A stretch of 64,000 nucleotides of DNA from an uncultured Pseudomonadota bacterium (GTDB lineage Bacteria > Pseudomonadota > Gammaproteobacteria > Burkholderiales > SG8-39): contig CAWFPL010000008.1 in NCBI GenBank assembly GCA_963817785.1, positions 172,113-236,112 on the forward strand, in the 5' to 3' direction. The notes under the pieces are model-generated. The model had not been told where the DNA came from and did not search any database. It was given only the letters and a program-made list of their open reading frames with translations. How positions within the stretch are numbered: position 1 is the stretch's first letter; each line of letters starts with the position of its first letter. A program made the position numbers and the translations under genes. This document shows, piece after piece, positions 12,920 to 33,160 of the stretch.

Positions 12920-13576
12920 ATGGCTATATCGGGCAAGCACTCGTGGATTGAAAGCTCGGACGTCCTTTCGCTGTTTCCCACCTTGGTCTGGAAAATCCAA
13001 CTTCGCGCCGAGGTGCACGAACCGATCGACGCGAGCACACTCGGACTATTGCACTCGCTGCAGCAGCGAGAACCGGAGTTGAAGCCCGGCGAAGCCTGGC
13101 AGTCGGGCCATGGCCTGCATCGGCGGGAGGAGCTGCACGCGCTTTGCGACTGCGTCAGCCGGGCAGCTGCGCGCGTGCTTCAGTTCCTGAAAATCGAGGA
13201 ATCAGTGATCGAAATCACCGGCTGCTGGGCGAACGTGTATGCGCCGGGTGCCGCGCACCGCGCGCACAGCCATCCCAACAATTTCTTGAGCGCGGTGTAC
13301 TACGTGCGCACCCGACCCGGCGCTGACAGTATCAATTTTCACGACCCGCGCAGCCAGACCGGCGTCATCAGACCACCGGTCACGGAACTCACCTCCGCAA
13401 ATACCGATCAGGTCGTGGTGCGGGTGAGAAATGGCATGCTGCTCCTCTTCCCATCCTATCTGTATCACTCGGTTGATCCCAATACCAGCGGCGAGATTCG
13501 CGTAAGTCTGAGCTTCAACCTGATGTTTCCCACATTCACTGCTGCATTGAGCAAGCCGTTGTGGGGCGATGAATAA
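12920..13576 (+). CDS. Putative 2OG-Fe(II) oxygenase (TIGR02466-like)
   Basis: LFPT, WANV, HSHPNNFLSAVYY, LFPSYLYHSV...RVSLSFN. Confidence 0.85.
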   Translation: MAISGKHSWIESSDVLSLFPTLVWKIQLRAEVHEPIDASTLGLLHSLQQREPELKPGEAWQSGHGLHRREELHALCDCVSRAAARVLQFLKIEESVIEITGCWANVYAPGAAHRAHSHPNNFLSAVYYVRTRPGADSINFHDPRSQTGVIRPPVTELTSANTDQVVVRVRNGMLLLFPSYLYHSVDPNTSGEIRVSLSFNLMFPTFTAALSKPLWGDE

Positions 13577-15290
13577 GGCAGCGGGCGCACTCGATCCCCT
13601 GGAAGTGGTCATGCGCTACCACCAGGAGACGAAGCACCGCTTTTCCCGCTACGCGCGCGCACCCGGGTACATGGACTGGGCGAATCAGCCAGACCCCTTT
13701 CGACGATTCGATGGATCTCCACTTATTCACTTACCGATCCTGAAACGCGACGACCCTCCGTACTCGCCGCTCTATGAGGACCTGTATCGCCCGGGGGCGA
13801 TTGCGAGTTCGCCGGTCACCATGCCGGCGCTCTCGCGCTTTTTCGAATATGCGCTGGCGATCTCGGCCTGGAAGCAGGCCGGCGAGGTCCGTTGGGCGCT
13901 TCGTAGCAATCCCTCGAGCGGTAACCTGCATCCGACCGAAGGCTACCTGCTCATTGGTGAAGTGCCTGGCCTGTCACCATTCCCGGGTCTTTATCACTAT
14001 ACGGCCAGAGAACATGCGCTGGAACTGCGAGCACAGCTGCCGCAGGAGAGCTTCACGCCACTCTTGGAAGGATTCCCGCGCCATGCCTTCCTGCTCGGCA
14101 TCACGTCAGTGAACTGGCGGGAGACCTGGAAGTACGGTGAGCGTGCGTTCCGCTACTGTCAGCACGACGTGGGACACGCAATCGGCAGCGCCCGCATTGC
14201 GGCCCAGACGCTTGGCTGGCGCATGCTGTTGCTGGACGGTGTGTCGGATGACACGCTGGGTGCCTTGTTGGGCGTCGATCGAGACCAGGATTTCAACGGG
14301 GCGGAGCGGGAGCACCCGGATTGCCTCGCTGTTGTCTGGCCGTCCGACCTCGGAGCAGATTTTTCCGCCCGGAAGACGAACACGTTGCCTCTATTCCTTG
14401 CGCCTGATGGCATTGGCGAGTCGACGCGGCGAATTTGGCACGGCAAGGCGAACCGGCTGAGTCGAGACGATCCGGTGCGCTGGCAGTACCTCGAAGAAGT
14501 GGAAGTCGCCTCGTGGAAGTCGAGTACCGAGCAGGCGGTCGTCGAGCTCGATCGTGGGAGCAACGCAGGGCGGGTACCGGAGGTTGCTCCGGGCCTCTCA
14601 AGCGCCGGACAGTTGATTCGCCAGCGGCGAAGTGCGCTAGCGTTTGACGGCGAGACGTCAATCCCCGTCGACCGTTTCTTTACGATATTGGCCCGGGTCA
14701 TGCCACGGGTCGAGCGTGACCTGTGCCAGCGCCCGATGCCCTGGGATATGCTGCCCTGGGAACCGGCCATTCACCTTGCCGTGTTCGTCCATCGAGTGGA
14801 CGGCCTTGCGTCCGGTCTTTACGTATTGGCTCGCAATGCTGCGAAGATGAGCCCGCTCAGTCAGGCGATGCACCAGCAATTTGCCTGGACCCCGCCTCCG
14901 GGCTGCCCGGAGGACTTGCCTCTCTTTCTCCTGCAAGAGGGCGATGCCCGGAAAATGGCTGCTCAGGTCAGTTGCGGTCAGGCTATCGCCGGTGACAGCG
15001 CGTTTTCGCTGGGGATGATCGCGGAATTCGAATCAAGCCTGCGGCGCTACGGACCCTGGTTCTACCGAAGGCTTTTTTGGGAGACAGGCGTAATCGGTCA
15101 GGTGCTTTACCTGGAAGCGGAGGCGGCGGGCGTTCGCGCGACCGGAATCGGCTGCTTTTTCGATGACCCCGTCCATCAGGTGCTGGGTATAGGTGACGCG
15201 GCGTTCCAGTCGCTATATCACTTCACCACCGGTGGACCTGTCGATGATCCTCGCCTGACCACCTTGCCACCCTACGGTCTCGAGCATTAA
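13569..15290 (+). CDS. SagB/ThcOx-family two-domain nitroreductase-like dehydrogenase
   Basis: YHQETKH, LRSNPSSGNLHPTEGY, WKYGERAFRYCQHDVGH, TGIGCFFDD. Confidence 0.88.
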   Translation: MNKAAGALDPLEVVMRYHQETKHRFSRYARAPGYMDWANQPDPFRRFDGSPLIHLPILKRDDPPYSPLYEDLYRPGAIASSPVTMPALSRFFEYALAISAWKQAGEVRWALRSNPSSGNLHPTEGYLLIGEVPGLSPFPGLYHYTAREHALELRAQLPQESFTPLLEGFPRHAFLLGITSVNWRETWKYGERAFRYCQHDVGHAIGSARIAAQTLGWRMLLLDGVSDDTLGALLGVDRDQDFNGAEREHPDCLAVVWPSDLGADFSARKTNTLPLFLAPDGIGESTRRIWHGKANRLSRDDPVRWQYLEEVEVASWKSSTEQAVVELDRGSNAGRVPEVAPGLSSAGQLIRQRRSALAFDGETSIPVDRFFTILARVMPRVERDLCQRPMPWDMLPWEPAIHLAVFVHRVDGLASGLYVLARNAAKMSPLSQAMHQQFAWTPPPGCPEDLPLFLLQEGDARKMAAQVSCGQAIAGDSAFSLGMIAEFESSLRRYGPWFYRRLFWETGVIGQVLYLEAEAAGVRATGIGCFFDDPVHQVLGIGDAAFQSLYHFTTGGPVDDPRLTTLPPYGLEH

Positions 15291-15415: not shown

Positions 15416-15460
15416 GTTCGAGCCCTAGTCGGGGAGCCAACTGGATGCGAAACTGGGCAC
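15416..15460 (-). other. att junction of element A overlapping integrase 3' end; outer half resembles a tRNA-Asn 3' end
   Basis: GTTCGAGCCCTAGTCGGGGAGCCA followed by arm GCGAAACTGGGCAC. Confidence 0.75.
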
Positions 15461-17014
15461 GCCCGCCAGCGTGCCCGGTTTCTTTGCCGCCACCGCGTGC
15501 GCAAGCGCCGCATAGCTCCCGCGCATCTCAAGCTGCCGGTCCACGACGCGGATTTCGGACACCAGCAGCCGCAGGTATTGCTTGGCAAAGGGACGGTTCG
15601 CGCCGAGCCTCGATTTGAGAGCGCGCCCGAAGGCCTCGACCTGGCTCGCCTTGAGCGCCCTCAGAGGCGTTTCCGCCTGGCGCTTGAGTCCCGCGATCTC
15701 AAGCAGCACCTCCTGCCGCCTCGCCTGCAGCTTGTGCGCGCGTTCCTGAAGCGCCGCATCCAGGGGAAGGTGCCCCGACTCTACCGCCTCAAAGAGCCGC
15801 TCGCTGCGTGACTTCAGCTCGTTGAGTTCTTTGGCGAGTACCTTGAGCCGCGCGTCCTGCTCCGAATGCGTGTTCCGCATCCGCTCGCGCGCCCCGGCGA
15901 TCATGGACTTCAGCCGCTGCGGCGTGAACACCTTTTCGGCCAGGGCCTTGAGCACCAGCTCGTCGAGCTTCTCCATCGGGATGTTGCCGCTCAGGCAGCG
16001 CGTATTGCCCTTCGCAATGCGCGTCTGGCATTTGTAGTAGCGATACCGTCCGCCTTTGCCGGTCGCAAGCGTCATCCCGGCCCCGCAATGCCCGCACTTG
16101 AGAAGGCCGGTAAGCAGCGTGGGCGAGTTCACCACCCGCGGCGGCACCTTGGCCGGGGCGCGCGCCGCACGCAGCGCCTGCGCCCGCCTGTAGGTGCCTG
16201 CGTCGATGATCGGCTCGACGGCCACCCGGACCCACTCCGTTTCGGCCTTCACCTCGCCCGTCTTGTTGCTCGTGCGGTTAAAAACGTACTCGCCGCAGTA
16301 GGCGCTATTGGCGAGGAGGTTATGCACCTTGCCACGCGTCCACTTCTGACCCCGCAGACTCACGCCCTGGTCATTGAGAATCGCCGCAATGCCCTTCTCC
16401 CCGAGCGACGCACCCTTGTGGCCGTCCAGGTACAGATCGAACACCTTGCACACGATGGCTGCCTCGGCGGGGTCGATCTCCAGGCGCTTCTTCTTGCCCT
16501 TGCGGCCCGTCGCCTCCGTCTCCACCGTCCTATAGCCAAAGGGCGGTCGAGAGCCGTTGAAATAGCCCTGCCGGGCGTTTTCCTTCATCGCCCGCAGCGT
16601 GTGCTTGCCGTTCTCCTTGCTCTGGTACTCGTCGAACAGGCTAAAGATCGTGCGGGCCATCTCGCCCGCCGGGTCGTCGCTCGTTTGCTGCGTGATCGAG
16701 ATGACCTTTACCCCAGCGCGCTTGAGCGTGCGTTCGTAGCTGAGGAATTGAAACAGATCCCGGAAGAACCGCGAGCGGCTATGAACGATGATCGCCTCGT
16801 AGGGAGACGGCTCTAGCGTCGCCTCCGCAATCATCTGCTGGAACACCGGCCGCCGGTCGTCAGTGGCCGAAGCCCCAAGCTCCACGTATTCCACGGCGAC
16901 CGCGAGGCCATGGCCCTTGCACCAGTCCCGCATCTGGCGGAGCTGGTCGGGGATCGAGAGATCCTTTTCAGCCTGCTTCGTCGTCGATACCCGAGCGTAC
17001 AGCGCGACGGCCAT
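15425..17014 (-). CDS. Large serine recombinase (integrase), copy A
   Basis: YARVST catalytic Ser, SRSRFFR, PPFGY recombinase domain, LLKCGHCG..YYKC zinc ribbon, coiled coil; RBS AAGGAAAGGA. Confidence 0.95.
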   Translation of the reverse strand: MAVALYARVSTTKQAEKDLSIPDQLRQMRDWCKGHGLAVAVEYVELGASATDDRRPVFQQMIAEATLEPSPYEAIIVHSRSRFFRDLFQFLSYERTLKRAGVKVISITQQTSDDPAGEMARTIFSLFDEYQSKENGKHTLRAMKENARQGYFNGSRPPFGYRTVETEATGRKGKKKRLEIDPAEAAIVCKVFDLYLDGHKGASLGEKGIAAILNDQGVSLRGQKWTRGKVHNLLANSAYCGEYVFNRTSNKTGEVKAETEWVRVAVEPIIDAGTYRRAQALRAARAPAKVPPRVVNSPTLLTGLLKCGHCGAGMTLATGKGGRYRYYKCQTRIAKGNTRCLSGNIPMEKLDELVLKALAEKVFTPQRLKSMIAGARERMRNTHSEQDARLKVLAKELNELKSRSERLFEAVESGHLPLDAALQERAHKLQARRQEVLLEIAGLKRQAETPLRALKASQVEAFGRALKSRLGANRPFAKQYLRLLVSEIRVVDRQLEMRGSYAALAHAVAAKKPGTLAGVPSFASSWLPD

Positions 17015-17171
17015 GTCCTTTCCTTTCCACTGTGTCCCCGCCAATCCGCAGCTCGGCGAGGAGTTCCGGCAACACGGAGTAAATCAAGACCAGTTCCGCC
17101 TCCGACACCTTCGATTCGTCGAACCCTTCCCGATACCGAATTGCGAGTTTATCGGAATCCGTAATGGGCAC
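16968..17171 (-). CDS. Small hypothetical protein overlapping integrase start (copy A)
   Basis: 67-aa ORF conserved in copy B; AAGGAGG upstream. Confidence 0.65.
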   Translation of the reverse strand: MPITDSDKLAIRYREGFDESKVSEAELVLIYSVLPELLAELRIGGDTVERKGHGRRAVRSGIDDEAG

Positions 17172-17177
17172 GCATGG

Positions 17178-17405
17178 TCAACCTCCTTTCTTTGCGGTGT
17201 GGGCCTGCCCGTGCCCTATCCTATCCTTGTGCTCTTCGCGAAACACCCGTTCCAACTCCGACTCCAAGCCGCTACGCCCGAACTCGTCCAGGACGAGCTT
17301 ACGAAACGCTGCGAACTGGCCGGGCGCAAGCGCCAGCTCGCCGAATTCCAGGATGCGCTTCATCCGCGGTTTGATGAGGCCGAGGAGCGTATCGAGATCG
17401 ATCAT
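17178..17405 (-). CDS. Small hypothetical protein (copy A)
   Basis: MIDLDTLL..., ATGA-coupled to rep stop, conserved in copy B. Confidence 0.7.
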   Translation of the reverse strand: MIDLDTLLGLIKPRMKRILEFGELALAPGQFAAFRKLVLDEFGRSGLESELERVFREEHKDRIGHGQAHTAKKGG

Positions 17406-18598
17406 TGGCCAAGCTGCACGCACTGGATGCGCTTTGTCACATCGAGCCGCCAGGTGAGCTCGTCGTGCACCCTGCACAGCAAGCGTTGCAGCTCGGTGAG
17501 GGCCTTGTCATGGGGCATGCTGACCTGCCTTCGCTGCACGCAGCGCAGCGCCGCGAGCTGCTTGAGGTATCCGTTCAAGCTCAGGCCAATGCGGGCGATG
17601 CGCTCCTCGATTTGCCGCATCGGGTCGATGGCGCGATAGACCCCTTCGGCCTTGAATCGCTCGATTTGCCCCTGAAGATCGCGCCACAGCGGATGCAACG
17701 GCCAGCGCGAGCGGTTGCGGTCGCGCGTGCGTTTGCGCAGCGTGTCGTGCTCCGCGGCGAGGTAGCGCAGCAGCTCGCCCGCCTGGGCGTTCAGCTCGGC
17801 ATAGGTACGGATCCCGAAGCGGCGCAGGACCTCTTTACGAACCTGCCATTCGATGCGCCAGACGTCGCGGTCCTCACCCCACAGCTCGAAGAGCCAGACC
17901 TTCTCGCTTTGCTCAAAGATCTCGGCCACCTTGTCGTAGACGCGCAGCACCACCTCGTCCCGGCCGAAGGTGAAGGTCTGAACCGTGCCGTTTGCACGAT
18001 GTTGACTATCTTTCGTCGCGAGGCTGACAAACGCGTCCTCGTCGAAGTCCACCACGGGGAGGTGGTAATCGAAACAGAAGTCCACCCGCGAAAGCGTTTC
18101 CGGCCTGACGGGGGCGAATCCAATCCCCGCGGCCCATGCGAGAAACCGCCGATGGAGCGCCTCGGCGGGCTCGCGCCAGAGCGCCTCGCTGCGGCAGGTG
18201 ACGTAAAACGAGGGGTTGTTGAATTCCCCCAACTCGATGCGATAGTCGGCGTTGCTGAGCACGAACGGATAGCCCGAGGCGCTGCCGTGCGGGGCGAGCA
18301 GGAACTCCATGTCGCCGAGCTGGATCGGCTGCGGCTCGGGGGTCCTTGCCTCGCGTAGGCTCTCCCGCTGCGCGCGAAGTTGCACGAAGTCGATTTGCGC
18401 TTGGCCCCGAGGCAGCAAGTAGTAGGCGCACTGGATCGTGTCGATCCCGTGCAGCAGCAACCGCGGAGCGGGCGCCTTCGCTCGCTTCGAGGGAACCGCA
18501 GCCGCCTTACTCGGTGTCGTCCTCGTCGTCTTCAAGGCCAATCCCTTCCTCGTCCAGAATCTCATCCACCCACGCCCGCACCTCGGTGCGCGATTCAT
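17402..18598 (-). CDS. Rep_trans/MOBT-like rolling-circle initiator or relaxase (copy A; start uncertain)
   Basis: LHGIDT, LSRVDFCFD, TFTFG, LRVYDKVAE (candidate catalytic Tyr), VWRIEWQVR. Confidence 0.78.
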   Translation of the reverse strand: MNRAPRCGRGWMRFWTRKGLALKTTRTTPSKAAAVPSKRAKAPAPRLLLHGIDTIQCAYYLLPRGQAQIDFVQLRAQRESLREARTPEPQPIQLGDMEFLLAPHGSASGYPFVLSNADYRIELGEFNNPSFYVTCRSEALWREPAEALHRRFLAWAAGIGFAPVRPETLSRVDFCFDYHLPVVDFDEDAFVSLATKDSQHRANGTVQTFTFGRDEVVLRVYDKVAEIFEQSEKVWLFELWGEDRDVWRIEWQVRKEVLRRFGIRTYAELNAQAGELLRYLAAEHDTLRKRTRDRNRSRWPLHPLWRDLQGQIERFKAEGVYRAIDPMRQIEERIARIGLSLNGYLKQLAALRCVQRRQVSMPHDKALTELQRLLCRVHDELTWRLDVTKRIQCVQLGQ

Positions 18599-19403
18599 CC
18601 CCGGTCAGCGCCTTGAGCTCCTCGGTCACCACCGATTCAATGCGCCAGCGCTCGGATAAGTCCAGGTCCTCGATCGCCTCCAGCTCCTGCTCGGCGTACT
18701 CCAGGCCGTAACGCTGCAGTGCCTGCTGTCGCTGCGTGCGGGCCGCGGTCGCGTTCTGGCGCGCGAGCGCTTCGCCGTGGAGCCGGTCCCGGACTCCTTC
18801 GGCGATCTGCACCAGCTCTGCCTGAGGTAGCTCTTCGATAGGCAACGGAGCGAGCGCACGCTCGATCGCCTGGAGGATCTGCGCCTTGAGTTCCGTACTC
18901 AGGCGGTAACTGGCGGGCCAACGCTCCACGACGGCCTGCTTGGTGTCCTGGATAATCTGACGGCGCTTGGCCTTGTGCCGCTCCTTGGCTTCCTCGGCCC
19001 GGCGGCGCGATTCCGCCTCCAGGGCAGCGCTCGCCCGGGCGGCCTCGCGCTCGCGCTCGGGGGCGGCCCGAGCCGCGGCCTCGCGCGCCTGCTGCTCGGC
19101 CGCTGCGCGACGGCTCGCGTTCTCGCGGGCGTCCAGCTCCCCGTGCGCCTGGCGGATCTCGCGCAGCGTCAGGCGAAGCTTCTCCGCCGACACCTGCTGG
19201 CGCATCTTGGTCACGGGGTCGAAGTCCTCGGCTGGCAGATCAAAGGACGCGCCCGCCGGGGACTGCGTAGGCATGCCGCCGGCTGCCTCAGGCAGGAGCG
19301 CTTGCCTAGGGGCTCTGCCTAGATAGGCAGCGCATGCCTTGAGGTGCGCGCGCACGCCTTGCCTGCTGCCGAATTCCTGTCCGCAGAAGCGGCATACCGC
19401 CAT
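18507..19403 (-). CDS. Hypothetical protein: N-terminal C2HC zinc finger, coiled coil, acidic tail (copy A)
   Basis: CRFC..F.S.QGVRAHLKAC; Ala/Glu/Arg-rich helix; conserved in copy B. Confidence 0.75.
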   Translation of the reverse strand: MAVCRFCGQEFGSRQGVRAHLKACAAYLGRAPRQALLPEAAGGMPTQSPAGASFDLPAEDFDPVTKMRQQVSAEKLRLTLREIRQAHGELDARENASRRAAAEQQAREAAARAAPEREREAARASAALEAESRRRAEEAKERHKAKRRQIIQDTKQAVVERWPASYRLSTELKAQILQAIERALAPLPIEELPQAELVQIAEGVRDRLHGEALARQNATAARTQRQQALQRYGLEYAEQELEAIEDLDLSERWRIESVVTEELKALTGDESRTEVRAWVDEILDEEGIGLEDDEDDTE

Positions 19404-19573
19404 GACCCATGCCCTCGAAGCTGAAGCGACCGCTTTCCCATTTCGAGAAAGCCGCCGGGGCGAGGCCCTATGGGCCCGCCCCGCGGCGCACCGCGTTCAG
19501 TTGTCCCGACTCAGTGCGGGTGGCTGCGGTGCAGCGCTGAATCTGCGGCGCTTCGGCGATGGCGTCAAAGCAA

Positions 19574-20455
19574 TTAACCTCCCTCTTGCACGGGGGGTTT
19601 GCTCCGGGGCGCGGGTTTTTCTACTGCGTCGAGCAGGGGTCGAAGATCGGCGTGGTGCCAGCCAGCTTGTCGCAGCGCGATGCGAAGCACCTCCTTGAAT
19701 GGGCCGCGGCGCAGCGATGACAAGCGCGCGCCGAATCCCGCTTTGGCGAGCTTGTGAAATTCGACGACGAAGCCCTGCGCGCGCGGGGTGCGCGGCCGCC
19801 CACCGCTAGAATTGCGTGACACCGGGATAGATGCGGCATACGACAGCAGGCTTTGAAGCTTCGGAAGATTCTTCTCGAATTGGCCAAGCGATTCCAGTGG
19901 GTCGGGATATCTGATTCTGATTCCATGCAAATGCGTTGGCCTGCTTTCCAGTACCGAGCTCCAGGCCGCGGATAGCCGCGTGTGGCCAGGGAAATATTCG
20001 CGAGCCTTTGCATAGGCGGCGATCAGCTCTTCCGCCTTCTTCTTGGCGCGCTCAAGATGCGTAATCGCCTCGCGCTCACTGCGCAGCGTGTCTCGATCTT
20101 GTAAGCGCAAGATCTGGTACGTGCCGATCAGACGCACCAGCTCATCGATGAAGGGTTCGCTATTTGCCGTGAGCTCCGATCTATCCAGCAATGCGGCAAT
20201 TTCCAGGCGAACCTGCGGCGGCATTTGGTAGCTGAGCCGCTGCACCCCGACGCCTGATAGTGCGCCAACGTAAGTGACTGAAGGCGTCTGTTCGGGCGGA
20301 TTTATCGAAGCAGCGGCAGGTGAGCTGTCGGATGAGAAATCCGGCATTGGACTGCCGGTCGCTGATGGTGTGGCACCGGACCTATCAGAAGGTCCTTTGA
20401 TGCGTGCTTGGGCAGCCCGCTTGACTCTCACCGGCTTCGACTTTCGCATGTGCAA
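19574..20455 (-). CDS. Hypothetical protein (copy A backbone)
   Basis: 293-aa ORF intact in both copies; GGRPR motif. Confidence 0.7.
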   Translation of the reverse strand: MHMRKSKPVRVKRAAQARIKGPSDRSGATPSATGSPMPDFSSDSSPAAASINPPEQTPSVTYVGALSGVGVQRLSYQMPPQVRLEIAALLDRSELTANSEPFIDELVRLIGTYQILRLQDRDTLRSEREAITHLERAKKKAEELIAAYAKAREYFPGHTRLSAAWSSVLESRPTHLHGIRIRYPDPLESLGQFEKNLPKLQSLLSYAASIPVSRNSSGGRPRTPRAQGFVVEFHKLAKAGFGARLSSLRRGPFKEVLRIALRQAGWHHADLRPLLDAVEKPAPRSKPPVQEGG

Positions 20456-20520
20456 AGCCCTCCCTTCGAGCCGCTAAACGCCGCAAGACCCTATCCCATG
20501 CCGCATGACGGCTGCCCTGG

Positions 20521-20654
20521 ACGGCGGCCCTTGACTGTGGGGCCCGGGCGCCTGTGTTGGCCGCTTGCGACCTTGCCGGGGTGCCCTGCGGGCACCCCGC
20601 GCAAGCTCGCTTGACGCTAACACAGGCGCCTACCCTCAGATCAAGGGCCGCCGT
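20521..20654. other. 134-nt imperfect hairpin, candidate single-strand origin (copy A)
   Basis: Nested stems ACGGCGGCCCTTGA/TCAAGGGCCGCCGT, GGCGCCTGTGTTGGC/GCTAACACAGGCGCC, CGGGGTGCCC/GGGCACCCCG. Confidence 0.6.
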
Positions 20655-20668
20655 AGAATGTATCCGTA

Positions 20669-20694
20669 GCCCCCCGTGTTACACGAACGGGGGC
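20669..20694 (-). other. Candidate nick site (dso/oriT), copy A
   Basis: GCCCCCGTTCGTGTAACACGGGGGGC: C-run, TAACA, G-run like Tn916/ICEBs1 MOBT oriT. Confidence 0.6.
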
Positions 20695-20715
20695 CAAACG
20701 CCGCAGACCAATCAT

Positions 20716-21513
20716 ATGACCGTGCTGATTATTGCTGTCCTCTGCGTGGTGATTGCATATGCGTTGCTGAAATATATGCTCTACGCCCGCCGATACTCGG
20801 CCGCACTCAACGTAGTGCTAGCAAAAGTTACATTCGAGCGACTGCTCCCGACCAAGCAGGCTGAGGTCAATTCGAAAGCACACGAGATCCTGGCCCGTCT
20901 AATGACGCGCCCCCCGGAGACCTTCGAGACAGAGGTACATCGCTTTGGTTGGTACGCCCTCGCAATGGCCGAGTTAGGAATTCAGCCTGCATTTGAGGAA
21001 CCGAGGTGGATCCTTATACCTAATCCCTTCCTCGCCGTTGTCCCTGGCGATCCAGCCTTTAAGAGAATTGTTAAATACTTGAAGCGCAAGTATGGCATCG
21101 ATATCCAATTGAAGAACGAGAAGTGCCCCGAGATTAAAGTCGAGGAGAAACCGAAACCGGCAGGGCCGAGAAACCGCACGTACTTGGACGAATTTAATGA
21201 GGTCGCCGGTAGCGTTATAGTGGGTGGTTACCGGACAATCGCATCGCGGCAAGGATGCGCCCCGTCGGCAAGAACAACGGATGAAAAGATCGTTCAAATT
21301 TACGTCCAGGTCGGCAGCGCATTTCAGGAGGCTGCCAAACAGCGTGGCGAGCACATTCCCGCACAAGTACTTAACTTCGTCGTGCTGCATTTCTTGCAGC
21401 TTTATGAAACGGCAGACGAGCAAATGTTTCATGAACACCTACGCTACGAGATCGCGAACTATCTGAAATCTGGGCTCCGCACTGACTACCAGCGTGAGCT
21501 TCCCTTGATTTAG
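20716..21513 (+). CDS. Cargo A1: membrane-anchored hypothetical protein
   Basis: N-terminal hydrophobic helix; visibly lower GC than backbone. Confidence 0.7.
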   Translation: MTVLIIAVLCVVIAYALLKYMLYARRYSAALNVVLAKVTFERLLPTKQAEVNSKAHEILARLMTRPPETFETEVHRFGWYALAMAELGIQPAFEEPRWILIPNPFLAVVPGDPAFKRIVKYLKRKYGIDIQLKNEKCPEIKVEEKPKPAGPRNRTYLDEFNEVAGSVIVGGYRTIASRQGCAPSARTTDEKIVQIYVQVGSAFQEAAKQRGEHIPAQVLNFVVLHFLQLYETADEQMFHEHLRYEIANYLKSGLRTDYQRELPLI

Positions 21514-21602
21514 ACGGCCGCATCGAGCGCAAATCGACCTTCGTCTACGCGACCGAGTTATCCGACCTTTGGCCCGGCTATTACACGCAGAGGGCTCTGA
21601 CA

Positions 21603-22022
21603 ATGGACGAGGAAGACTATACGCGGTTTAGCAAGTGGCAAGACGTCACCCGCGAACAACTCGGTGCAACGTCGAACCTCCTTCTCGGCCTTGCCACCGG
21701 CCTACTAGGTTTTACTACCGTGCTCCTTCTTGATCGCAGGCTAATCGTTTCATGCGCTTTCGGTTTCGGCGTTACAGCGTCGATCCTTCTCGCATTGTCA
21801 GTAGCCCTTGCACTCTGGTGCACAACAAATCGGCTCGCAGATTTCCGTCTAACGGCGAAAATCGCACATCCGAAGACTTGCAACAGTCAACGCGATGAGT
21901 TGCGGGAAGCATCAAAGCATCTCGGCGAGCGCACGTGGGGCATTTTCCGTGGTCAAGTATGGAGTTTCGCATTCGGTGCCGGCGCTATTGCCGTCGGTAT
22001 CATCATCCAGGTATTTTCGTAG
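21603..22022 (+). CDS. Cargo A2: small membrane protein with ~3 TM helices
   Basis: Three hydrophobic segments; ends just before att. Confidence 0.7.
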   Translation: MDEEDYTRFSKWQDVTREQLGATSNLLLGLATGLLGFTTVLLLDRRLIVSCAFGFGVTASILLALSVALALWCTTNRLADFRLTAKIAHPKTCNSQRDELREASKHLGERTWGIFRGQVWSFAFGAGAIAVGIIIQVFS

Positions 22023-22136
22023 CGATTATCACGGTAGCCCCCGACGCTTCGAGAGAGACGCCCTCCCAGCAGGCTTCGCTCGAGGGCTGGGCAATTCGCG
22101 AGAAATACGTTAGCTAACCGGCACCCGAACGATCCA

Positions 22137-22176
22137 GTGCCCACCTTCGCCCCGGTTGGGGAGCCAAGAATAGGGC
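22137..22176 (-). other. att junction, cargo end of element A
   Basis: Arm GTGCCCACCTTCGC + core GGGGAGCCA. Confidence 0.75.
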
Positions 22177-22462
22177 ATTTTTCACGTAAGTAGGCACTTC
22201 AAGCCGAAACCCTGTAGGCGCCATGAAGGCAATCGCGGCGCCCGACGCGCTGAACATCGCCCAAAGGTGGCACACGGGGCGTCTTTTCGCACAAGGCACG
22301 ATGTCGAACGACCCTGACGGAAGGGCCCCTCGAGGATCGTTCAGAAGCCGCCAGGAGCGACGCGCCCCCGGGCCGCTACCAAAGAGGAGACCGCACCGCG
22401 CACCGTAGCATCCAGCCTCCGCCTCGGGTACGCTCGCAGGCATCGCGGAAAAAGGACGGGGT

Positions 22463-22825
22463 ATGGACTCCATTGAGGCGCTCTGGTCGATCGTCTTTGC
22501 ATCGAACGTACAGCTGCTGCCCGGACAACCGTCGGCGGGCGGCGGCATCGTCGTGTTCGAGACCGGCCGCGTCTTCGGCGGGGATTCGACGATGATCTAC
22601 GTTGGTCGCTACCGCTTCCCGCCGGAGAGCAAGCACTTGGAGGCCGAGGTCGAGGTCAACAGGTTCCTCGCGGGAGGCGTCTCCGTATTCGGGGCCATCG
22701 ACCACTTCCACCTCAAGCTCACGGGGCAGTACCAGCGCGATCGCTTTGTGATGGAGGGGCACATGGTCGAGAACCCGGCGCAGCGGATCGCGATCGAGTT
22801 CGTGAGGCGCGCAGAGCTGCCGTAG
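22463..22825 (+). CDS. GrlR-family beta-barrel protein
   Basis: GGGIVVFETGRVFGGDSTMIYVGRY matches the GrlR-like G.G..v..G.i.GGD....Y.G pattern; AAGGA RBS. Confidence 0.6.
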   Translation: MDSIEALWSIVFASNVQLLPGQPSAGGGIVVFETGRVFGGDSTMIYVGRYRFPPESKHLEAEVEVNRFLAGGVSVFGAIDHFHLKLTGQYQRDRFVMEGHMVENPAQRIAIEFVRRAELP

Positions 22826-23628: not shown

Positions 23629-23672
23629 GTTCGAGCCCATTCTGGCTCCCCGAGGAGGGCAGAACTGGGCAC
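23629..23672 (+). other. att junction, cargo end of element B
   Basis: Core TGGCTCCCC + arm GCAGAACTGGGCAC. Confidence 0.75.
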
Positions 23673-23794
23673 TGGGTGGTTAGGGTCGAACTACGCTTAG
23701 GCTCATGTTACCTGGACGGTGCTGGGCAAGTGTAGAGCGGTCGGAAGCGCTCCCGCCCTTGAGCAGTCGTTGTTGGGCGTGTCGTTAGCACTCT

Positions 23795-24556
23795 TCATCG
23801 GTCCACGTTCTGTTTGTTAATTACGGCATTTCGCTTCAGGAATCGAATCAGAATGGTTTCGAACTTCTTTCGCAGTTCCGCCTCGGGTACCTTGATGTAT
23901 GCGGCCGTCGTGACGATGGGCGCCTTGAACCAGAACTTTTCCTCGTGCTCTTGAATTCGCTTTCTAATGCTTGTCCCTTGGCCTACGTAGATCGGGCGTT
24001 CTGAGATGTCATACAGGACATAGATGCCGGGAACGTCGGGCCAATCGTCTTTATCTAGCGGATCGAACTCGAAGAATTCCCCGACCCCCTCGACGGTAGC
24101 TTCATCGCGGATCTCTTGCTTCGTCTCTGCGGGAACCTCTTGTTCTAACGCCTTCTCAAGCCGGCGAACAGTTTCGACACGCGGATTCTCAATGCGCCCG
24201 GACTCAATGTTATATATGGCCGGAGCAGAAACATCTGCCTTTGCTGCCAACTCGCCAACCGACAAGCGCCGTTCCAAACGAACGCGGTTCAGCCATGAGC
24301 CGAAGGCGGATGGACCAGACTCCTGCTCTGTTCCGTCTTCGTCGCGTGCCTTTTGATCCGCGGCATTGTTTGTTCGCGATAACCCTAGTACCTCGCGGAT
24401 GTGGGCTTTCTGGGAACGATCTGGTATGACTTTGTCGTTCTCCCAGTTCGAGATCGTCATCTGGCTCACATCGAGCTTCTCGCCGAGCTCGCTTTGAGAC
24501 CAAGCGTTCTTGATGCGCGTCCGGCGCATTCGCTCGCCGAATGAGATATTGGCCAT
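23795..24556 (-). CDS. Cargo B2: tandem XRE-type HTH domains + GIY-YIG nuclease
   Basis: Two HTH (SQSELGEKLDVSQMTISNWE; SVGELAAKADVSAPAIYNIESG); PGIYVL..PIYVGQ..IRKRIQEH..E..N. Confidence 0.85.
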   Translation of the reverse strand: MANISFGERMRRTRIKNAWSQSELGEKLDVSQMTISNWENDKVIPDRSQKAHIREVLGLSRTNNAADQKARDEDGTEQESGPSAFGSWLNRVRLERRLSVGELAAKADVSAPAIYNIESGRIENPRVETVRRLEKALEQEVPAETKQEIRDEATVEGVGEFFEFDPLDKDDWPDVPGIYVLYDISERPIYVGQGTSIRKRIQEHEEKFWFKAPIVTTAAYIKVPEAELRKKFETILIRFLKRNAVINKQNVDR

Positions 24557-24632
24557 AGCTCACAGACCTCCTGGAGGAAATTGTCCGTGCTAGTCGCGGC
24601 ATTCAACTGGTCCGCGCGGCATACCGGTTAAA

Positions 24633-24983
24633 TCAAGACTGCCGATCGCGTATGAACTCGTACACTTCATTTGGCGAATGAACGACGAAGCTATCAGCGT
24701 TTCCAGGCGTCTTGTCTGCTGCAATGGATCGAAGAGCCTGCAAGAGTCTTACCGACACGGGCGTGATGTCTTGGGACGCTAACGACGGATTGACCTTTAT
24801 GACTTCGGACAGCATTCGGTCCGCATCGTGGCGACTCATGAAGAAGCGGACAGGCCGTCGACCGGGATAACGGTTGTCGGGGATCGTGAGGTATTTACCA
24901 CTTGGCTTCGACTGGAGGACCCACGCCTCGGAGGTTTCCGAGAATTCAGATAGGACAGTATCGAGGGGTAGCGGTCGCGCCAT
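24633..24983 (-). CDS. Cargo B1: hypothetical protein
   Basis: 116-aa ORF co-oriented upstream of the GIY-YIG gene. Confidence 0.65.
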   Translation of the reverse strand: MARPLPLDTVLSEFSETSEAWVLQSKPSGKYLTIPDNRYPGRRPVRFFMSRHDADRMLSEVIKVNPSLASQDITPVSVRLLQALRSIAADKTPGNADSFVVHSPNEVYEFIRDRQS

Positions 24984-25054
24984 CGGTTTGCGTGCTTCTG
25001 TCGTAGTCTAAGTTGAAGTAGCCGGCCTGCAGTCCAAGATCCAGCAAACCCACG

Positions 25055-25080
25055 GCCCCCGAGCGTGTAACACGGGGGGC
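25055..25080 (+). other. Candidate nick site (dso/oriT), copy B
   Basis: GCCCCCGAGCGTGTAACACGGGGGGC. Confidence 0.6.
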
Positions 25081-25094
25081 TTCGGATACATTGT

Positions 25095-25228
25095 ACGGCG
25101 GCCCTTGATCTGAGGGTAGGCGCCTGTGTTAGCGTCCAGCGAGCTTGGGCGGGGTGCCCGCAGGGCACCCCGGCAAGGTCGCAAGCGGCCAACACAGGCG
25201 CCCGGGCCCCACAGTCAAGGGCCGCCGT
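25095..25228. other. 134-nt imperfect hairpin, copy B
   Basis: Homolog of 20521-20654. Confidence 0.6.
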
Positions 25229-25293
25229 CCAAGGCAGCCGTCATGCGGCATGGGATAGGTTCTTGCGGCGTTTAGCGGCTCGAAGGGAGGGCT

Positions 25294-26178: not shown

Positions 26179-26348
26179 TTGCTTTGACGCCATCGCCGAA
26201 GCGCCGCAGATTCAGCGCTGCACCGCAGCCACCCGCACTGAGTCGGGACAACTGAACGCGGTGCGCCGCGGGGCGGGCCCAGAGGGCCTCGCCCCGGCGG
26301 CTTTCTCGAAACGGAAGGGCGTCGGTTGCAACGTCGAGGGCATGGATC

Positions 26349-27884: not shown

Positions 27885-28625
27885 TCATGCTTTGCCCTCG
27901 TGTTCGCGCATCGACTTGTTGCCCTTCAATGCGATGCGGTGCGCGGCGTGCACGATGCGATCGAGGATGGCGTCGGCCAGCGTCGGGTCGTCGAGCCAGG
28001 CGTGCCAGGAATTGACGGGCAACTGGCTCGTGATGAGCGACGAGCGCGAGCCGACGCGATCGTCGAGGAGCTCGAGCAGGTCGTTGCGCTCGCCCGGGCC
28101 GATCGGGGCGATAGCGAAGTCGTCCAGCGCGAGCAGGTCGATGCGGGCGAGCTGCGCCAGGCGCCGGCCGAAGCTGCCGTCGCCGTGGGCGACGCGCAAC
28201 TCCTCGAGCAGCCGCGGGGCGCGAGCGTAGAGCACGGTGAAGCCCAGGCGGGCTGCCTGCTGAGCGAGCGCGCACGCCAACCAAGTCTTGCCCGTACCGG
28301 TGGCACCGGTGATCAGGACGTTGCGGCCGTGGCGCAGCCAGTCGCCGCCGGCGAGCGCGCTGATCAGCGCCCGATCCAGGCCGCGTGAGACTCGCCAGTC
28401 GATGTCCTCGATGCAAGCGCTCGAGACCTTCAGGCGCGCAGCCTTCAGAAGTCTGGTGAGGCGCTTGGCGTCGCGCCAGTCGAGCTCGCGCTGCACGAGG
28501 AGTGCCAGGCGTTCCTCGAACGGCAGCGCCGCGGCTGCGCTCGTGCTCGCCGGGTCCTCGAGCGCGTGCACGATGCCGTCCAGGCGCAGGCTGCGAAGTT
28601 GTTCCAAGGTGTGTTCGTTAAGCAA
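27885..28625 (-). CDS. istB: IS21 helper ATPase
   Basis: GATGTGKT Walker A, LLALDDF, ITSQLP, DAILDR. Confidence 0.93.
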   Translation of the reverse strand: MLNEHTLEQLRSLRLDGIVHALEDPASTSAAAALPFEERLALLVQRELDWRDAKRLTRLLKAARLKVSSACIEDIDWRVSRGLDRALISALAGGDWLRHGRNVLITGATGTGKTWLACALAQQAARLGFTVLYARAPRLLEELRVAHGDGSFGRRLAQLARIDLLALDDFAIAPIGPGERNDLLELLDDRVGSRSSLITSQLPVNSWHAWLDDPTLADAILDRIVHAAHRIALKGNKSMREHEGKA

Positions 28626-28644
28626 GGTAGGTCTCCTTCGTGGG

Positions 28645-30198
28645 TCAGTGGTAGTACTCGGGGCCGCGCACGTTCTCGTGCAGCGGCAGGGTCTTCTGGG
28701 CGGGGGCCTCGGCGCTGGCGCTCTGTCGATCCAGGCCGGCGGCCAGGATCGAGGCGACGCTGCGGTAGGTGGGCGAGCCGATCGCCAGTGCTCGCGCGCA
28801 GGCGGCTTCCAGCCGTTCGGGGCCGAGCTGGCGCACCAGGCGCTTGAGGCCCAGGCACGCACGGTAGCCCTGCTCAGGATGCGGGCGGTGCTCCAGCTGC
28901 CAGCGCACGAGCGCCGCGCACTGCGCGCCGATGCGCTCGCCCCAGGCAATGAGCTTGGCCGGGGTCCACTCCAGGTGCGCGCGGTGCGAGGCCGGCATGT
29001 GCTCGGGCAGCGTCGTGTGCCTGCCCTGCAGGCGGCTATAGACGTGGCAGGCCACGCGGCTCTGGCCGAGGAACGCCTCGACCGTGGTGTCGGTCACGCG
29101 CACCTCGAGCTGGGCGTGCACCAGCCGATGCGGCACGCTGTAGAAGTGCCGATCGACCTCGAAGTGGTAGTCGATGTTCACGCGTGCGCGCACGAAGCGC
29201 GCGATCACCATGCGCGTGGCCGGCAGCGGCTTGAGCGCCGCACGATCCAGCGCCTCGAAGGCGCTTCGCCGAGTCCCGGGCAGCTTCTTGAAGGGCCGCG
29301 CGTTCAACTGCACGAGCAGCTCGGCGATCGCCGCGTTCGCCTCGGCCAGGCTGAACAGGCGCCGGTGGCGCAGGCGCGCGAGGATCCAGCGCTCGACCAC
29401 TTGCACGCCCACCTCGACCTTGGGCTTGTCGCGGGGATGCGCGGGCCGCGCCGGAAGCACGACCGTCGCGTAGTGGGCGCAGAACTCCTCGACCAGCCGG
29501 CTCGAGGTCGGCTCGTAGCGGTCGGGGTGCGCAATGAGCGCGCGCGTCTGGTCGGGCACGATCAGCCGCGTCACGCCGCCGATGAACTCCAGCGCCGCAA
29601 TCAGTGCCCCGATCCAGTCGGCCGCCGTCTGCGTGGCGGTGGCACACGCGTAGGTGAAGTTCGACGCCCCCAGCACCGCGACGAACACCTGCGCGGGCCG
29701 GATCTCGCCGGTGTCGGCGTCGATGATCGGAAGCGTCTGGCCAGCGTAGTCGACGAACAACCGCTCGCCGGCGGGGTGGGTCTGGCGCATCGAGCGCTTC
29801 AGGCGCGCCGCCCAGGCGCGATACTTCACGCAGAAGCTCGTGTACTTGTAGGCCGATTCGCCCGCCTGGGCGTGCGCGCGCTGGTACTCCTCCCAGAGCA
29901 GCTGCAGCGTCACCCCGGGGCGCTTGAGCTCCTGGTGGATGAGGGCGTAGTCGGGCTCGAGCTGGTGGCTGGAGCGCGCGACCGGCGCTCGGTAGAGCCG
30001 GTGCTCGAGCTCCTCGTCCGAGAGCGTCTGGGCCAGCGCCCAGTCCACGCCAGCGGCGCGCGCGAGCAGCACGATCTTGCCCACCGTGGCCTTGGCCATC
30101 GGGATGGCGCGGGCCACTTGGGCGTAGCTCAGGCCTGCTTCGAGGTGCAGGCGAAGGGTCTGTCGAATCTGGCGCATCGTGATCCTGGGTGTGGGCAT
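28645..30198 (-). CDS. istA: IS21 transposase
   Basis: GERLFVDYAG, IVPD, PRDKPKVE, FYSVP motifs. Confidence 0.93.
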   Translation of the reverse strand: MPTPRITMRQIRQTLRLHLEAGLSYAQVARAIPMAKATVGKIVLLARAAGVDWALAQTLSDEELEHRLYRAPVARSSHQLEPDYALIHQELKRPGVTLQLLWEEYQRAHAQAGESAYKYTSFCVKYRAWAARLKRSMRQTHPAGERLFVDYAGQTLPIIDADTGEIRPAQVFVAVLGASNFTYACATATQTAADWIGALIAALEFIGGVTRLIVPDQTRALIAHPDRYEPTSSRLVEEFCAHYATVVLPARPAHPRDKPKVEVGVQVVERWILARLRHRRLFSLAEANAAIAELLVQLNARPFKKLPGTRRSAFEALDRAALKPLPATRMVIARFVRARVNIDYHFEVDRHFYSVPHRLVHAQLEVRVTDTTVEAFLGQSRVACHVYSRLQGRHTTLPEHMPASHRAHLEWTPAKLIAWGERIGAQCAALVRWQLEHRPHPEQGYRACLGLKRLVRQLGPERLEAACARALAIGSPTYRSVASILAAGLDRQSASAEAPAQKTLPLHENVRGPEYYH

Positions 30199-30258
30199 GA
30201 CCGTCCGAAAAAATCGGCCAGCATGCCTGACAGTCAGGTCACTCGCGCGCCCCGCGAT

Positions 30259-30370
30259 CGTCCACGATCAGCTTGAAACGCCGTCCACGATCAGTCTGAA
30301 ACGGCGTCTACGATCAGCCTGAATTGCCGTCTACGATCCTCTGAAATGACCGTCTACGATGGGCTGAAAT
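30259..30370. repeat. Five ~23-bp tandem IS21 subterminal repeats
   Basis: CGTC(C/T)ACGAT....TGAA repeated five times. Confidence 0.8.
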
Positions 30371-31324: not shown

Positions 31325-31368
31325 GGCACGGGCAGGCCCACACCGCAAAGAAAGGAGGTTGACCATGC

Positions 31369-31572
31369 GTGCCCATTACGGATTCCGATAGACTTGCCAT
31401 TGAGTATCGGGAAGGTTTCGATGAATCGAAGGCTTCGGCGGCGGAACTGGTCTTGATTAACTCCGTGCTGCCGGAACTCCTCGCCGAGCTGCGGATTGGC
31501 GGGGAAACACTGGAAAGGAAAGGACATGGCCGTCGCGCTGTACGCTCGGGTATCGACGACAAAGCAGGCTGA
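31369..31572 (+). CDS. Small hypothetical protein overlapping integrase start (copy B)
   Basis: Homolog of 16968-17171. Confidence 0.65.
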   Translation: MPITDSDRLAIEYREGFDESKASAAELVLINSVLPELLAELRIGGETLERKGHGRRAVRSGIDDKAG

Positions 31573-33160
31573 AAAGGATCTCTCGATCCCCGACCAGCTC
31601 CGCCAGATGCGGGACTGGTGCAAGGGCCAGGGCCTTGCGGTCGCCGTGGAATACGTGGAGCTTGGGGCTTCGGCCACCGACGACCGGCGGCCGGTGTTCC
31701 AGCAGATGATTGCGGAGGCGACGCTAGAGCCGTCTCCCTACGAGGCGATCATCGTTCATAGCCGCTCGCGGTTCTTCCGGGATCTGTTTCAATTCCTCAG
31801 CTACGAACGCACGCTCAAGCGCGCTGGGGTAAAGGTCATCTCGATCACGCAGCAAACGAGCGACGACCCGGCGGGTGAGATGGCCCGCACGATCTTTAGC
31901 CTGTTCGATGAGTACCAGAGCAAGGAGAACGGCAAGCACACGCTGCGGGCGATGAAGGAGAACGCCCGGCAAGGCTATTTCAACGGCTCTCGGCCGCCCT
32001 TTGGTTACAAGGCGGTCGAGACCGAAGCCACGGGCAGGAAGGGCAAGAAGAAGCGCTTGGAGATCGATCCCGCCGAGGCGGGAATCGTGCGCAAGGTGTT
32101 CGATCTGTACCTGGACGGCCACAAGGGCGCGCCGCTCGGGGAGAAGGGCATCGCGGCGATTCTCAATGACCAGGGCGTGAGCCTGCGGGCTCAGAAGTGG
32201 ACGCGCGGCAAGGTGCATAACCTGCTTGCCAATAGCGCCTACTGCGGCGAGTACGTCTTCAACCGCACGAGCAACAAGACGGGCGAGGTGAAGGCCGAAA
32301 CGGAATGGGTCCGGGTGGCCGTCGAGCCGATCATCGACGCAGACACCTACAGGCGGGCGCAGGCGCTGCGTGCGGCGCGCGCCCCGGCCGAGGTGCCGCC
32401 TCGGGTGGTGAACTCGCCCACGCTGCTAACGGGCCTTCTCAAGTGCGGGCATTGCGGGGCCGGGATGACGCTTGCCACGGGCAAAGGCGGGCGGTATCGC
32501 TACTACAAGTGCCAGACGCGCATTGCGAAGGGCAACACGCGCTGCCCGAGCGGCAACATCCCGATGGAGAAGCTCGACGAGCTGGTGCTCAAGGCCCTGG
32601 CCGAAAAGGTGTTCACGCCGCAGCGGCTGAAGTCCATGATCGCCGGGGCGCGCGAGCGCATGCGCCGTGCGCACACGGACCAGGATGCGCGGGTCAAGGT
32701 GCTGAGCAAGGAGCTGAACGAGCTGAAGGCGCGTAGCGACCGGCTCTTTGAGGCCGTGGAGTCGGGGCACCTTCCCCTGGATGCGACGCTTCAGGAACGC
32801 GCGCACAAGCTCCAGGCGAGGCGCCAGGCGCTGCTCCTTGACATCGCCGGGCTCAAGCGTCAGGCGGAAACCCCGTTAAGCGCGCTCAAAGCGAGCCAAG
32901 TGGAGACCTTCGGGCGCGCTCTCAAATCGAGGCTCGGCGCGAACCGTCCCTTTGCCAAGCAATACCTGCGGCTGCTGGTGTCCGAAATCCGAGTCGCGGA
33001 CCGGCAGCTTGAGATGCGCGGAAGCTATGCAGCGCTCGCGCACGCCGTGGCGGCGGGTCAACCGGGCACCCGCGAGGGCGTGCCCAGTTTTGCATCCAGT
33101 TGGCTCCACAACCATTGCAAATCTGGACATGGGCGGGTGGTGAGAATCGACTTGAGCTAA
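31526..33160 (+). CDS. Large serine recombinase (integrase), copy B
   Basis: Same motifs as copy A; diverges after SSWL at the att core. Confidence 0.95.
   Translation: MAVALYARVSTTKQAEKDLSIPDQLRQMRDWCKGQGLAVAVEYVELGASATDDRRPVFQQMIAEATLEPSPYEAIIVHSRSRFFRDLFQFLSYERTLKRAGVKVISITQQTSDDPAGEMARTIFSLFDEYQSKENGKHTLRAMKENARQGYFNGSRPPFGYKAVETEATGRKGKKKRLEIDPAEAGIVRKVFDLYLDGHKGAPLGEKGIAAILNDQGVSLRAQKWTRGKVHNLLANSAYCGEYVFNRTSNKTGEVKAETEWVRVAVEPIIDADTYRRAQALRAARAPAEVPPRVVNSPTLLTGLLKCGHCGAGMTLATGKGGRYRYYKCQTRIAKGNTRCPSGNIPMEKLDELVLKALAEKVFTPQRLKSMIAGARERMRRAHTDQDARVKVLSKELNELKARSDRLFEAVESGHLPLDATLQERAHKLQARRQALLLDIAGLKRQAETPLSALKASQVETFGRALKSRLGANRPFAKQYLRLLVSEIRVADRQLEMRGSYAALAHAVAAGQPGTREGVPSFASSWLHNHCKSGHGRVVRIDLS

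Follow-up and report, generated by a model that had tools for sequence, protein, structure and literature searches.

The window analysed here, a 64-kb stretch of DNA from an uncultured Burkholderiales bacterium, contains two integrative elements, element A (15431-22167) and element B (23643-33107), each of which carries one large serine recombinase (LSR) gene. As the initial annotation had proposed, and as the sequence confirms, the attachment site of the element (attP) lies within the integrase gene (int) in both cases, and integration swaps the residues that follow the tryptophan codon of the crossover core. In element A, a 9-nt core is found at 15431-15439 and again at 22158-22166, and 7 nt separate each core from its arm. 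The reconstructed attP spans ~51 bp and comprises a 14-nt arm, 7 nt, the 9-nt core, 7 nt and the 14-nt inverted arm. The arms of element B (33080-33093 versus 23659-23672) match in inverted orientation at 13 of 14 positions, and its two cores have just 7 nt in common. The inverted arms of A (12/14), those of B and the 7-nt spacing were all re-read in the sequence as first described, as were the in situ C-terminus of IntA (...WLPD-stop) and its predicted excised tail, which is obtained by translating 22110-22166 (-) from the core Trp (WLPNRGEGGHWIVRVPVS-stop). For element B, the reading of the P' side stood: from the core Trp it gives WLPEEGRTGHWVVRVEL..., with a stop after 30 codons. The excised form of B is itself hypothetical, B being defective with a long hybrid tail, and the short tail ascribed to IntB in the window did not hold up, as its open reading frame (ORF) runs on through a third, degenerate P'-like arm and ends WLHNHCKSGHGRVVRIDLS-stop.

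IntA and IntB are 94% identical, and both contain Resolvase, Recombinase and Zn_ribbon_recom domains above the Pfam cut-offs. The catalytic domain (PF00239) was detected with E = 3.5e-28 and 1.4e-28, PF07508 and PF13408 likewise exceed their cut-offs, and the domain search returned serine recombinase domains only, with no tyrosine recombinase. The nucleophilic Ser of the Y-A-R-V-S-T motif is invariant across 53 sequences. The zinc-ribbon cysteines C317, C320, C339 and C350 are invariant as well. Upstream of the ATG used by homologs, the longest ORF of intA starts at 17044 (15425-17044, -) and that of intB covers 31496-33160 (+). AlphaFold2 models of IntB and of the homolog P0112 (mean pLDDT 77.5 and 78.2) show the usual succession of a catalytic domain, a long helix, the recombinase domain, a zinc ribbon that carries a two-helix coiled-coil insertion, and a terminal strand-strand-helix. 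The coiled coil of the IntB model is formed by antiparallel long helices (375-422 and 430-457) between the zinc-ribbon elements, and the tail is positioned beyond it, after the last strand-strand-helix of the zinc-ribbon domain. Foldseek searches with the IntB model retrieved the SPbeta, Bxb1, phiC31 and LI integrases (E = 4e-23 to 1e-13), with only 16-18% sequence identity in the structural alignments, and phmmer also identified the SPbeta integrase (E = 4e-14). The attP of both elements fits the LSR norm, with 51 bp, inverted half-sites, a short crossover and short direct repeats.

In reverse complement, the core reproduces the 3' terminus of tRNA-Asn(GTT), with bases of the acceptor 3' strand followed by the encoded CCA, and the conserved Trp codon of W-L-P is the antisense of that CCA. 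The genuine tRNA-Asn of the source genome, at C6:159352, has the same sequence, and 15416-15430 together with the core differs from the 3' 24 nt of the genome's tRNA-Asn by 1 mismatch; ARAGORN detected no tRNA in the window. A third integrase copy, 88% identical and located on contig C4, adjoins a tRNA-Asn-like fragment of ~35 nt, compared with 24 nt for A. The integrase side of B lacks a tRNA-like half-site and has an attP-like junction instead. Since the target site (attB) is formed by a tRNA gene's 3' end in antisense reading, the integrated tail is plain tRNA complement. Motif counts within the window alone are unconvincing, with 4 arm matches versus 1.32 expected (5 of 100 shuffles reach 4) and 3 core matches versus 0.99 expected (8 of 100 shuffles reach 3). 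The significance of these sites comes from the recurrence of the whole architecture in homologous loci.

Table 1. Features of elements A and B, in window coordinates.
Feature	Position	Strand	Remarks
tRNA-Asn-like 3' fragment (T-loop and part of T-stem)	15416..15430	+	B' half-site of the occupied site of A; its T-stem is the source of the TAG stop in integrated IntA
intA, large serine recombinase, integrated form	15425..17014	-	529 aa from the ATG used by homologs
Crossover core / direct repeat, integrase end of A	15431..15440	.	encodes W-L-P of IntA; 10 nt identical to 22158-22167
P arm of A	15447..15460	-	within int, codons V-P-S-F-A
rep-like gene, directly upstream of int	17402..18598	-	distantly related to rolling-circle replication initiators
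Orphaned tail-coding segment of A	22110..22166	-	18 codons and stop from the core Trp
P' arm of A	22137..22150	-	12/14 inverted versus P arm
Core / direct repeat, far end of A	22158..22167	.	10-nt identity with 15431-15440
Left flank of B, inverted T-arm motif	23629..23642	+	5-6 nt from core; palindrome-like B half-site
Far-end junction of B	23643..23735	+	core 23643-23651, spacer, P' arm 23659-23672, 30-codon tail segment
IS21-family insertion sequence splitting the rep-like gene of B	27885..30198	-	istB 27885-28949, istA 28645-30198
intB	31526..33160	+	544 aa from the homologous ATG; long hybrid tail
Right junction of B	33080..33130	+	P arm 33080-33093, core 33101-33107, degenerate P'-like arm 33117-33130

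Integrated and reconstructed forms among homologs

Homologs of 41-85% identity were compiled from one-genome-per-species contigs, IMG/VR and JGI metagenomes, giving 189 loci. The family is broader than this set, with at least 572 confirmed relatives among 598 pattern matches in the genome_contigs collection and at least 572 among 599 in metagenome_contigs. The 3' end of int was present in 157 of the 189 loci, and Trp was recognisable in 144 of them. The in situ tails of these 144 loci consist of tRNA complement in 112 cases, following the pattern W-[L/R]-[P/A]-..-[D/G]-S-N-.., and are otherwise very short (11), of another kind (17) or cut by the contig end (4); a GHW-type tail was found in situ in none of the 157 loci. 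An intact tRNA occupies the strand opposite the int 3' end in 83 of the 131 loci with enough flank (ARAGORN), and the tRNA 3' end coincides exactly with the Trp codon in 80 of 85 tRNA calls. The target tRNAs are Asn (36), Arg (27), Glu (8), Ser (6), Ala (4), Lys (2) and His (2).

A similar distribution was obtained for the 121 proteins that represent the best database matches, in which 102 endings are of the tRNA type, 15 are classified as 'other' and 4 have no Trp; a pattern search for clear GHW tails returned none among the 121. Two of the 15 'other' proteins, P0112 (tail WLPGKIKYEQWEENVSSI) and P0054, are natural attP-type forms. Neither terminal repeats nor excised-type tails in situ were present in the 29 IMG/VR loci. 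A homolog occurs in 5 of 61 related genomes, the source genome counted, and outside the source genome these 61 genomes hold no homolog above 64% identity and no close empty site. A second recurrent ending, W-L-P-x-[L/M]-Y-[P/A]-L-R-T-[L/I]-x-F-x-[V/I/L]-[P/A]-R, is shared by two loci (L127, L146) and two proteins (P0106, P0109); it is neither tRNA complement nor a GHW tail and may mark a conserved target other than a tRNA.

The attP site was rebuilt in homologs by searching upstream of int for the 7-nt core of each locus and then for the reverse complement of its own P arm. A P' arm was accepted with at least 9/14 matches, loci were required to have at least 1.5 kb upstream, and elements extending beyond the 10-kb flank were invisible to the search. 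By this procedure a P' arm was found in 23 of 108 loci, each time 16 nt past the start of the core. Shuffled arms gave 0-2 matches per trial (20 trials), the reversed arm gave 0 and a direct copy 3. The 23 reconstructed elements measure 3.6-9.9 kb and have direct repeats of 7-18 nt. Together with A, B and the C4 copy they make up the 26 sites used for tail analysis, and, since all sites were picked by arm and core alone, the tail statistics are independent of the selection.

Conservation of the tail at the codon level

Downstream of the core, the reading frame of int is preserved in the reconstructed sites. The first in-frame stop falls 15-25 codons past the Trp at 24 of 26 sites (median 18), whereas the other two frames have a stop in the same range at 5 and 4 of 26 sites (Fisher p = 1e-10). 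A second Trp stands just outside the arm at 21 sites, and in 4 of the other 5 a Trp is found within two codons. Its TGG is invariant in 21/21 by construction, as the set was defined by that Trp; the mirror position flanking the P arm varies, unlike the TGG flanking the P' arm. The fourth and sixth codons after the second Trp have a mean pairwise identity of 0.81 and 0.82 at the second base but only 0.24-0.31 at the first and third bases, and they encode a hydrophobic residue in 20/21 and 21/21 sites, respectively. Differences in length between G-H and W always amount to whole codons (G-H-W, G-H-S-W, G-H-H-W, G-H-R-W), with one extra codon in 4 of the 8 sites of the source genome and also in L062, and relatives of the Geobacter type retain L-S-L through different Leu and Ser codons. 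The resulting pattern, W-x4-[D/G]-[E/K]-x-G-[H/Q]-W-x-E-x-hydrophobic-x-hydrophobic-(0-2 residues)-stop, is matched by both tails in the window (I-V-R-V-P-V-S and V-V-R-V-E-L). A clamp-binding-like Q-L-S-L occurs in 2 tails, and most tails contain no Gln. An overlapping antisense gene was considered as a source of the conservation and rejected, as the antisense frames are open at 11-19 of 26 sites, none of them consistently.

The initial annotation had described a GHW peptide conserved beyond the DNA arm. With attP rebuilt across homologs and the tail examined codon by codon, this description is borne out, as conservation holds in frame at 43-63% identity. Up to G-H the tail is also P' arm DNA, which places a double constraint on that portion. 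Past the arm, to judge from the codon patterns, coding alone explains the conservation. On the comparative sequence evidence, the tail is a peptide under selection at the protein level, and integration removes it.

A proposed state-specific role for the tail and its alternatives

The element recombines with the 3' end of a tRNA gene and leaves the tRNA sequence unaltered through CCA. Integration joins int, after its Trp codon, to antisense tRNA sequence, so that translation stops three codons on in the lineage of A and adds 2 to more than 20 unrelated residues in relatives, and the native 3' end of int is stranded at the opposite end of the element. We propose a model in which the full-length integrase would be made only from the excised circle, the state in which attP x attB integration has to take place, and the integrated copy would yield an isoform without the conserved tail. 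Since integrated tails differ wholly by target tRNA, the function of the integrated isoform cannot depend on its tail. The conserved tail is present only in the circle, and it should therefore serve the excised state (attP x attB). Most likely, the tail, a flexible peptide past the zinc-ribbon domain, would tune the integrase for integration, in its activity, directionality or level, and loss of the tail would make the prophage isoform different, in parallel with IntP and IntX of phage Mx8.

A regulatory role at this position is plausible by analogy with other LSRs, whether through directionality, activity or stability. The module of zinc ribbon and coiled coil, which precedes the tail in the chain, governs LSR directionality. 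The extreme C-terminus of phiC31 integrase has been described as part of the surface that binds the recombination directionality factor (RDF), and structures of excisive complexes are reported to have been obtained with RDFs fused to the integrase C-terminus. We hold the anatomy and the selection on the tail to be very probably correct, as judged from sequence comparison. The complete statement, in which a state-specific role of the tail is added to these, appears to us about equally likely to be right or wrong. A stronger version, with the long circle-made isoform locked into integration and the tail-less prophage isoform competent for excision with no separate RDF needed, is quite unlikely.

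Several observations weigh against the model. The 26 sites share ancestry (for example L005/L006/L059/L154 and L041/L178/L179), so that the effective sample is below 26. The [D/G]-[E/K]-x-G-H portion of the tail is dictated by the P' arm DNA itself, and tail length is not strict, with 30 codons in B and 36 in L121. The distal tail can be lost, as P0054 from Nitrosomonas (N. oligotropha according to the source) stops directly after the G-H encoded by the P' arm. Residues after the last helix have pLDDT <50 (IntB 521-554; P0112 508-544), and the models hint at no tail contact, the underlying alignments having contained almost no long-form tails. Element B is defective, with its rep-like gene split by an insertion sequence (IS) and a non-canonical right junction, and the single intact tRNA-Asn gene of the source genome, on C6, is free of all three copies. 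No excised circle, empty site or attP joint was seen for element A or B. The fragmented assembled contigs of four sequencing runs contained no att-site joint and are uninformative on excision; one 740-nt contig from these runs matches the assembled left junction.

It is conceivable that integration is a one-way, 'suicidal' event, in which the tail is essential for activity, the enzyme is crippled once integrated, and the element stays locked unless another copy provides integrase in trans, with integrated copies decaying thereafter. Decayed remnants of P' ends are numerous in the source genome, as are junctions of a tandem or hybrid type (C8:150083, 257219, 482671, 1222578 and, in B, the right end), B has been inactivated by an IS, and SSV-type integrases, whose own gene is disrupted on integration, are termed 'suicidal' in PMC7253208. 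However, the loss concerns only ~14 residues of a disordered extension and leaves all recognised LSR domains intact. The family is also widespread but patchy (at least 572 relatives per collection; 5 of 61 related genomes), which argues for continued mobility and hence requires excision by the integrated isoform, and we regard a suicidal reaction as rather unlikely. We give a similarly low probability to a stability switch, in which the hydrophobic, disordered C-terminal peptide acts as a degradation or recognition tag (ClpXP- or Lon-type) and the free-state integrase, unlike the integrated isoform, is short-lived or remodelled, or the other way round. The tail is predicted to be disordered and ends in hydrophobic-x-hydrophobic plus 0-2 residues, and C-terminal ssrA-like tags are carried by the integrase and by the product of the attP-containing repressor gene in cluster G mycobacteriophages such as BPs. 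The endings of our tails are nevertheless not uniform (...SL, ...TL, ...IP, ...AP, ...VS, ...NEN, ...NQI), and an invariant Trp and an acidic position are atypical of degradation tags.

The tail may also have no function as a protein, if the overlap of attP and int reflected compactness and the conservation of the tail reflected a constraint on the DNA, for instance an attP that extends further, a terminator or a promoter. The P' arm does encode five conserved tail residues, the integrated integrase tolerates any tail, and tail length varies in 2 of 26 sites. Against this, conservation past the arm is confined to second codon positions, with first and third positions at background, the position of the stop is kept in one frame only, and indels are whole codons. 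With the arm reaching its limit 25 bp from the centre, the site already has the half-site length that is usual for an LSR attP, and LSR att sites have been given as 40-50 bp. The triplet beside the P arm is also not the mirror image of the TGG beside the P' arm. A purely DNA-level origin of the tail therefore seems to us very unlikely.

Relation to known systems

A gene that is altered by its own integration reaction is known from phage Mx8, in which attP also lies in the int coding sequence and the prophage gene gains a new 3' end (IntP/IntX). The integrase modified by integration is reported to have altered properties (PMC6070905, PMC4383910), and the integrases of Mx8 and SSV are described as extending across attP (PMC4383910). 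Mx8 Int is a tyrosine recombinase, whereas the enzymes described here are LSRs with a short, symmetric attP of ~51 bp; they target tRNA genes at the extreme 3' end, in antisense reading, and the swapped tail of ~14-17 residues is conserved across the family. As the integrases of A and B carry serine recombinase domains only, the likeness to Mx8 is one of mechanism, not of homology. The archaeal SSV-type integrases also have the recombination site within the integrase ORF and a gene altered by integration, according to PMC7253208. They differ in being tyrosine recombinases whose gene is split into two large parts, whereas only the tail is separated here and all domains remain in one ORF.

The Ralstonia filamentous phages phiRSM1 and phiRSM3 resemble our elements in having a serine recombinase that uses a reverse-oriented tRNA 3' end as core, and in being small elements with rolling-circle replication (PMC3816273). 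As reported there, the 13-nt attP/attB core is the reversed 3' end of tRNA-Ser and starts with TGG, the antisense of CCA. In phiRSM, however, Int is of the small resolvase/invertase type and attP is intergenic, between ORF14 and ORF15 (PMC3816273), whereas IntA is a 529-aa LSR with Recombinase, zinc-ribbon and coiled-coil domains and attP lies in its coding sequence. The canonical LSRs (phiC31, Bxb1, SPbeta and A118/LI) share the domain order, the fold and a short inverted-repeat att site with IntA and IntB. Their attP sites are intergenic, and their attB sites are mostly in protein-coding genes. They also differ in that directionality is set by a separate RDF protein. In the immunity system of cluster G mycobacteriophages, attP lies in a coding sequence, and integration removes a C-terminal peptide and changes the behaviour of the protein. 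There, the gene in question encodes the repressor, a tyrosine recombinase serves as integrase and the peptide removed is a known degradation tag; here the gene is that of the integrase itself.

We found no description of an attP inside the gene of its own LSR, or of a tRNA-specific LSR family, in a literature search whose coverage was incomplete and excluded supplements. A database paper from 2014 states in its text that tRNA targeting was not known for integrases of the serine family. The concept is thus known from Mx8, and what is new is the enzyme class, the coded core that is antisense to a tRNA, and the conserved swapped tail. Whatever the tail does, the family shows that LSRs can become specialised for tRNA genes, at their 3' ends (Asn, Arg, Glu, Ser, Ala, Lys and His), and a single stretch of DNA here meets three constraints at once, as a half-site bound by protein, as coding sequence and as the complement of a tRNA acceptor end. 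Serine integrases are major tools of genome engineering, and although they work in one direction, a separate RDF protein normally makes them run in reverse; in this natural family the integrase's C-terminus is rewritten by its own reaction. If the tail matters, the system would keep its own memory of state, would open a new way to act on directionality or stability, and would supply a ready-made idea for designing state-dependent integrases. Database endings such as '...W-L-P-D-L-G-S-N-Q-G-P-x-D' should be read as artefacts of the integrated state and not as native C-termini.

The shared backbone of the elements consists of the rep-like gene followed by an outward-pointing LSR gene at one element end. 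The rep-like gene encodes 355-398 aa, is adjacent to int in 18 of 25 other elements, and has Pfam matches to Rep_trans and to Phage_CRI, the gpII family of filamentous phages, that stay below threshold; they were obtained with the window copy and with 6 of 10 homologs. On the left, the elements are variable and have no family matches. With only the longest ORFs called in this GC-rich DNA, the cargo ORFs of A and B matched no Pfam or PHROGs family, except for a helix-turn-helix regulator in B (23795-24556), and the small ORF between rep and int likewise had no family match, leaving no RDF candidate identified. On this sequence evidence we appear to be dealing with small integrative elements whose replication is of the rolling-circle type. 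Neither Pfam nor PHROGs matched a Zot/pI-like ATPase or coat gene, by which Inoviridae are recognised, among the ORFs of A, and on the available evidence the elements do not qualify as inoviruses.

In element B, the rep-like gene is split into two halves (27154-27591 and 30375-31136) by the IS21-family element, which has an IstA with rve and Mu-transposase C domains, an IstB (E = 5e-68) and a local GC of ~0.71. The third arm matches the P' arm of B itself at 10/14 positions and is left over from a neighbouring element now lost. Owing to its attP-like right junction, intB keeps its long, degenerate hybrid tail. A junction of this type (P arm-core-P'-like arm) is expected inside a tandem array and was also observed in L059 and at C8:150083. 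We consider that B probably cannot excise. The site at C8:150083 (-) is an intact attP-like site with P arm, core and P' arm, 1 nt shorter than that of A, and its tail reads G-H-W-M-Q-V-V-C-I-P-R-stop. A tblastn search with IntA detected no integrase homolog beside it (the nearest match is ~20 kb off), and it looks like the fossil of a tandem junction. The third copy, C4:145427-162675, is a 17.2-kb composite with one integrase and two rep-like genes (93% and 53% identical to that of A), probably two fused elements.

The inverted T-arm motif that flanks B 5-6 nt outside the core recurs at C4:145427, C8:257219(-) and C8:482671(-) and in the distant relative L027. The reconstituted target of L027 is near-palindromic (17/25 symmetric); the sequence downstream of the tRNA shows no such relation in the remaining 22 loci (6-11 of 25). 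A palindromic central dinucleotide was rejected as the origin of these flanks, as a GC crossover would place motif and core 10 nt apart and 5-6 were seen. A 45-nt tRNA-Asn 3' fragment lies 15 kb from the sole intact tRNA-Asn gene (C6:144508-159426) and is the mark of another island at this tRNA, presumably one with a tyrosine-type integrase.

The region to the left of A (12920-15290, +) encodes a 2OG-Fe(II) oxygenase and a 573-aa protein with a nitroreductase domain, and the tRNA-like fragment starts ~125 nt past the end of the latter gene. In the integrated state, a 144-aa ORF (22114-22548, -) begins outside A and extends over the junction into the stranded tail-coding segment; in such GC-rich DNA it is probably spurious. 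Just right of B, a gene for an IS200-like Y1 transposase (33455-33967, -; E = 2.4e-35) is adjoined by an enoyl-CoA hydratase gene (34074-34883).

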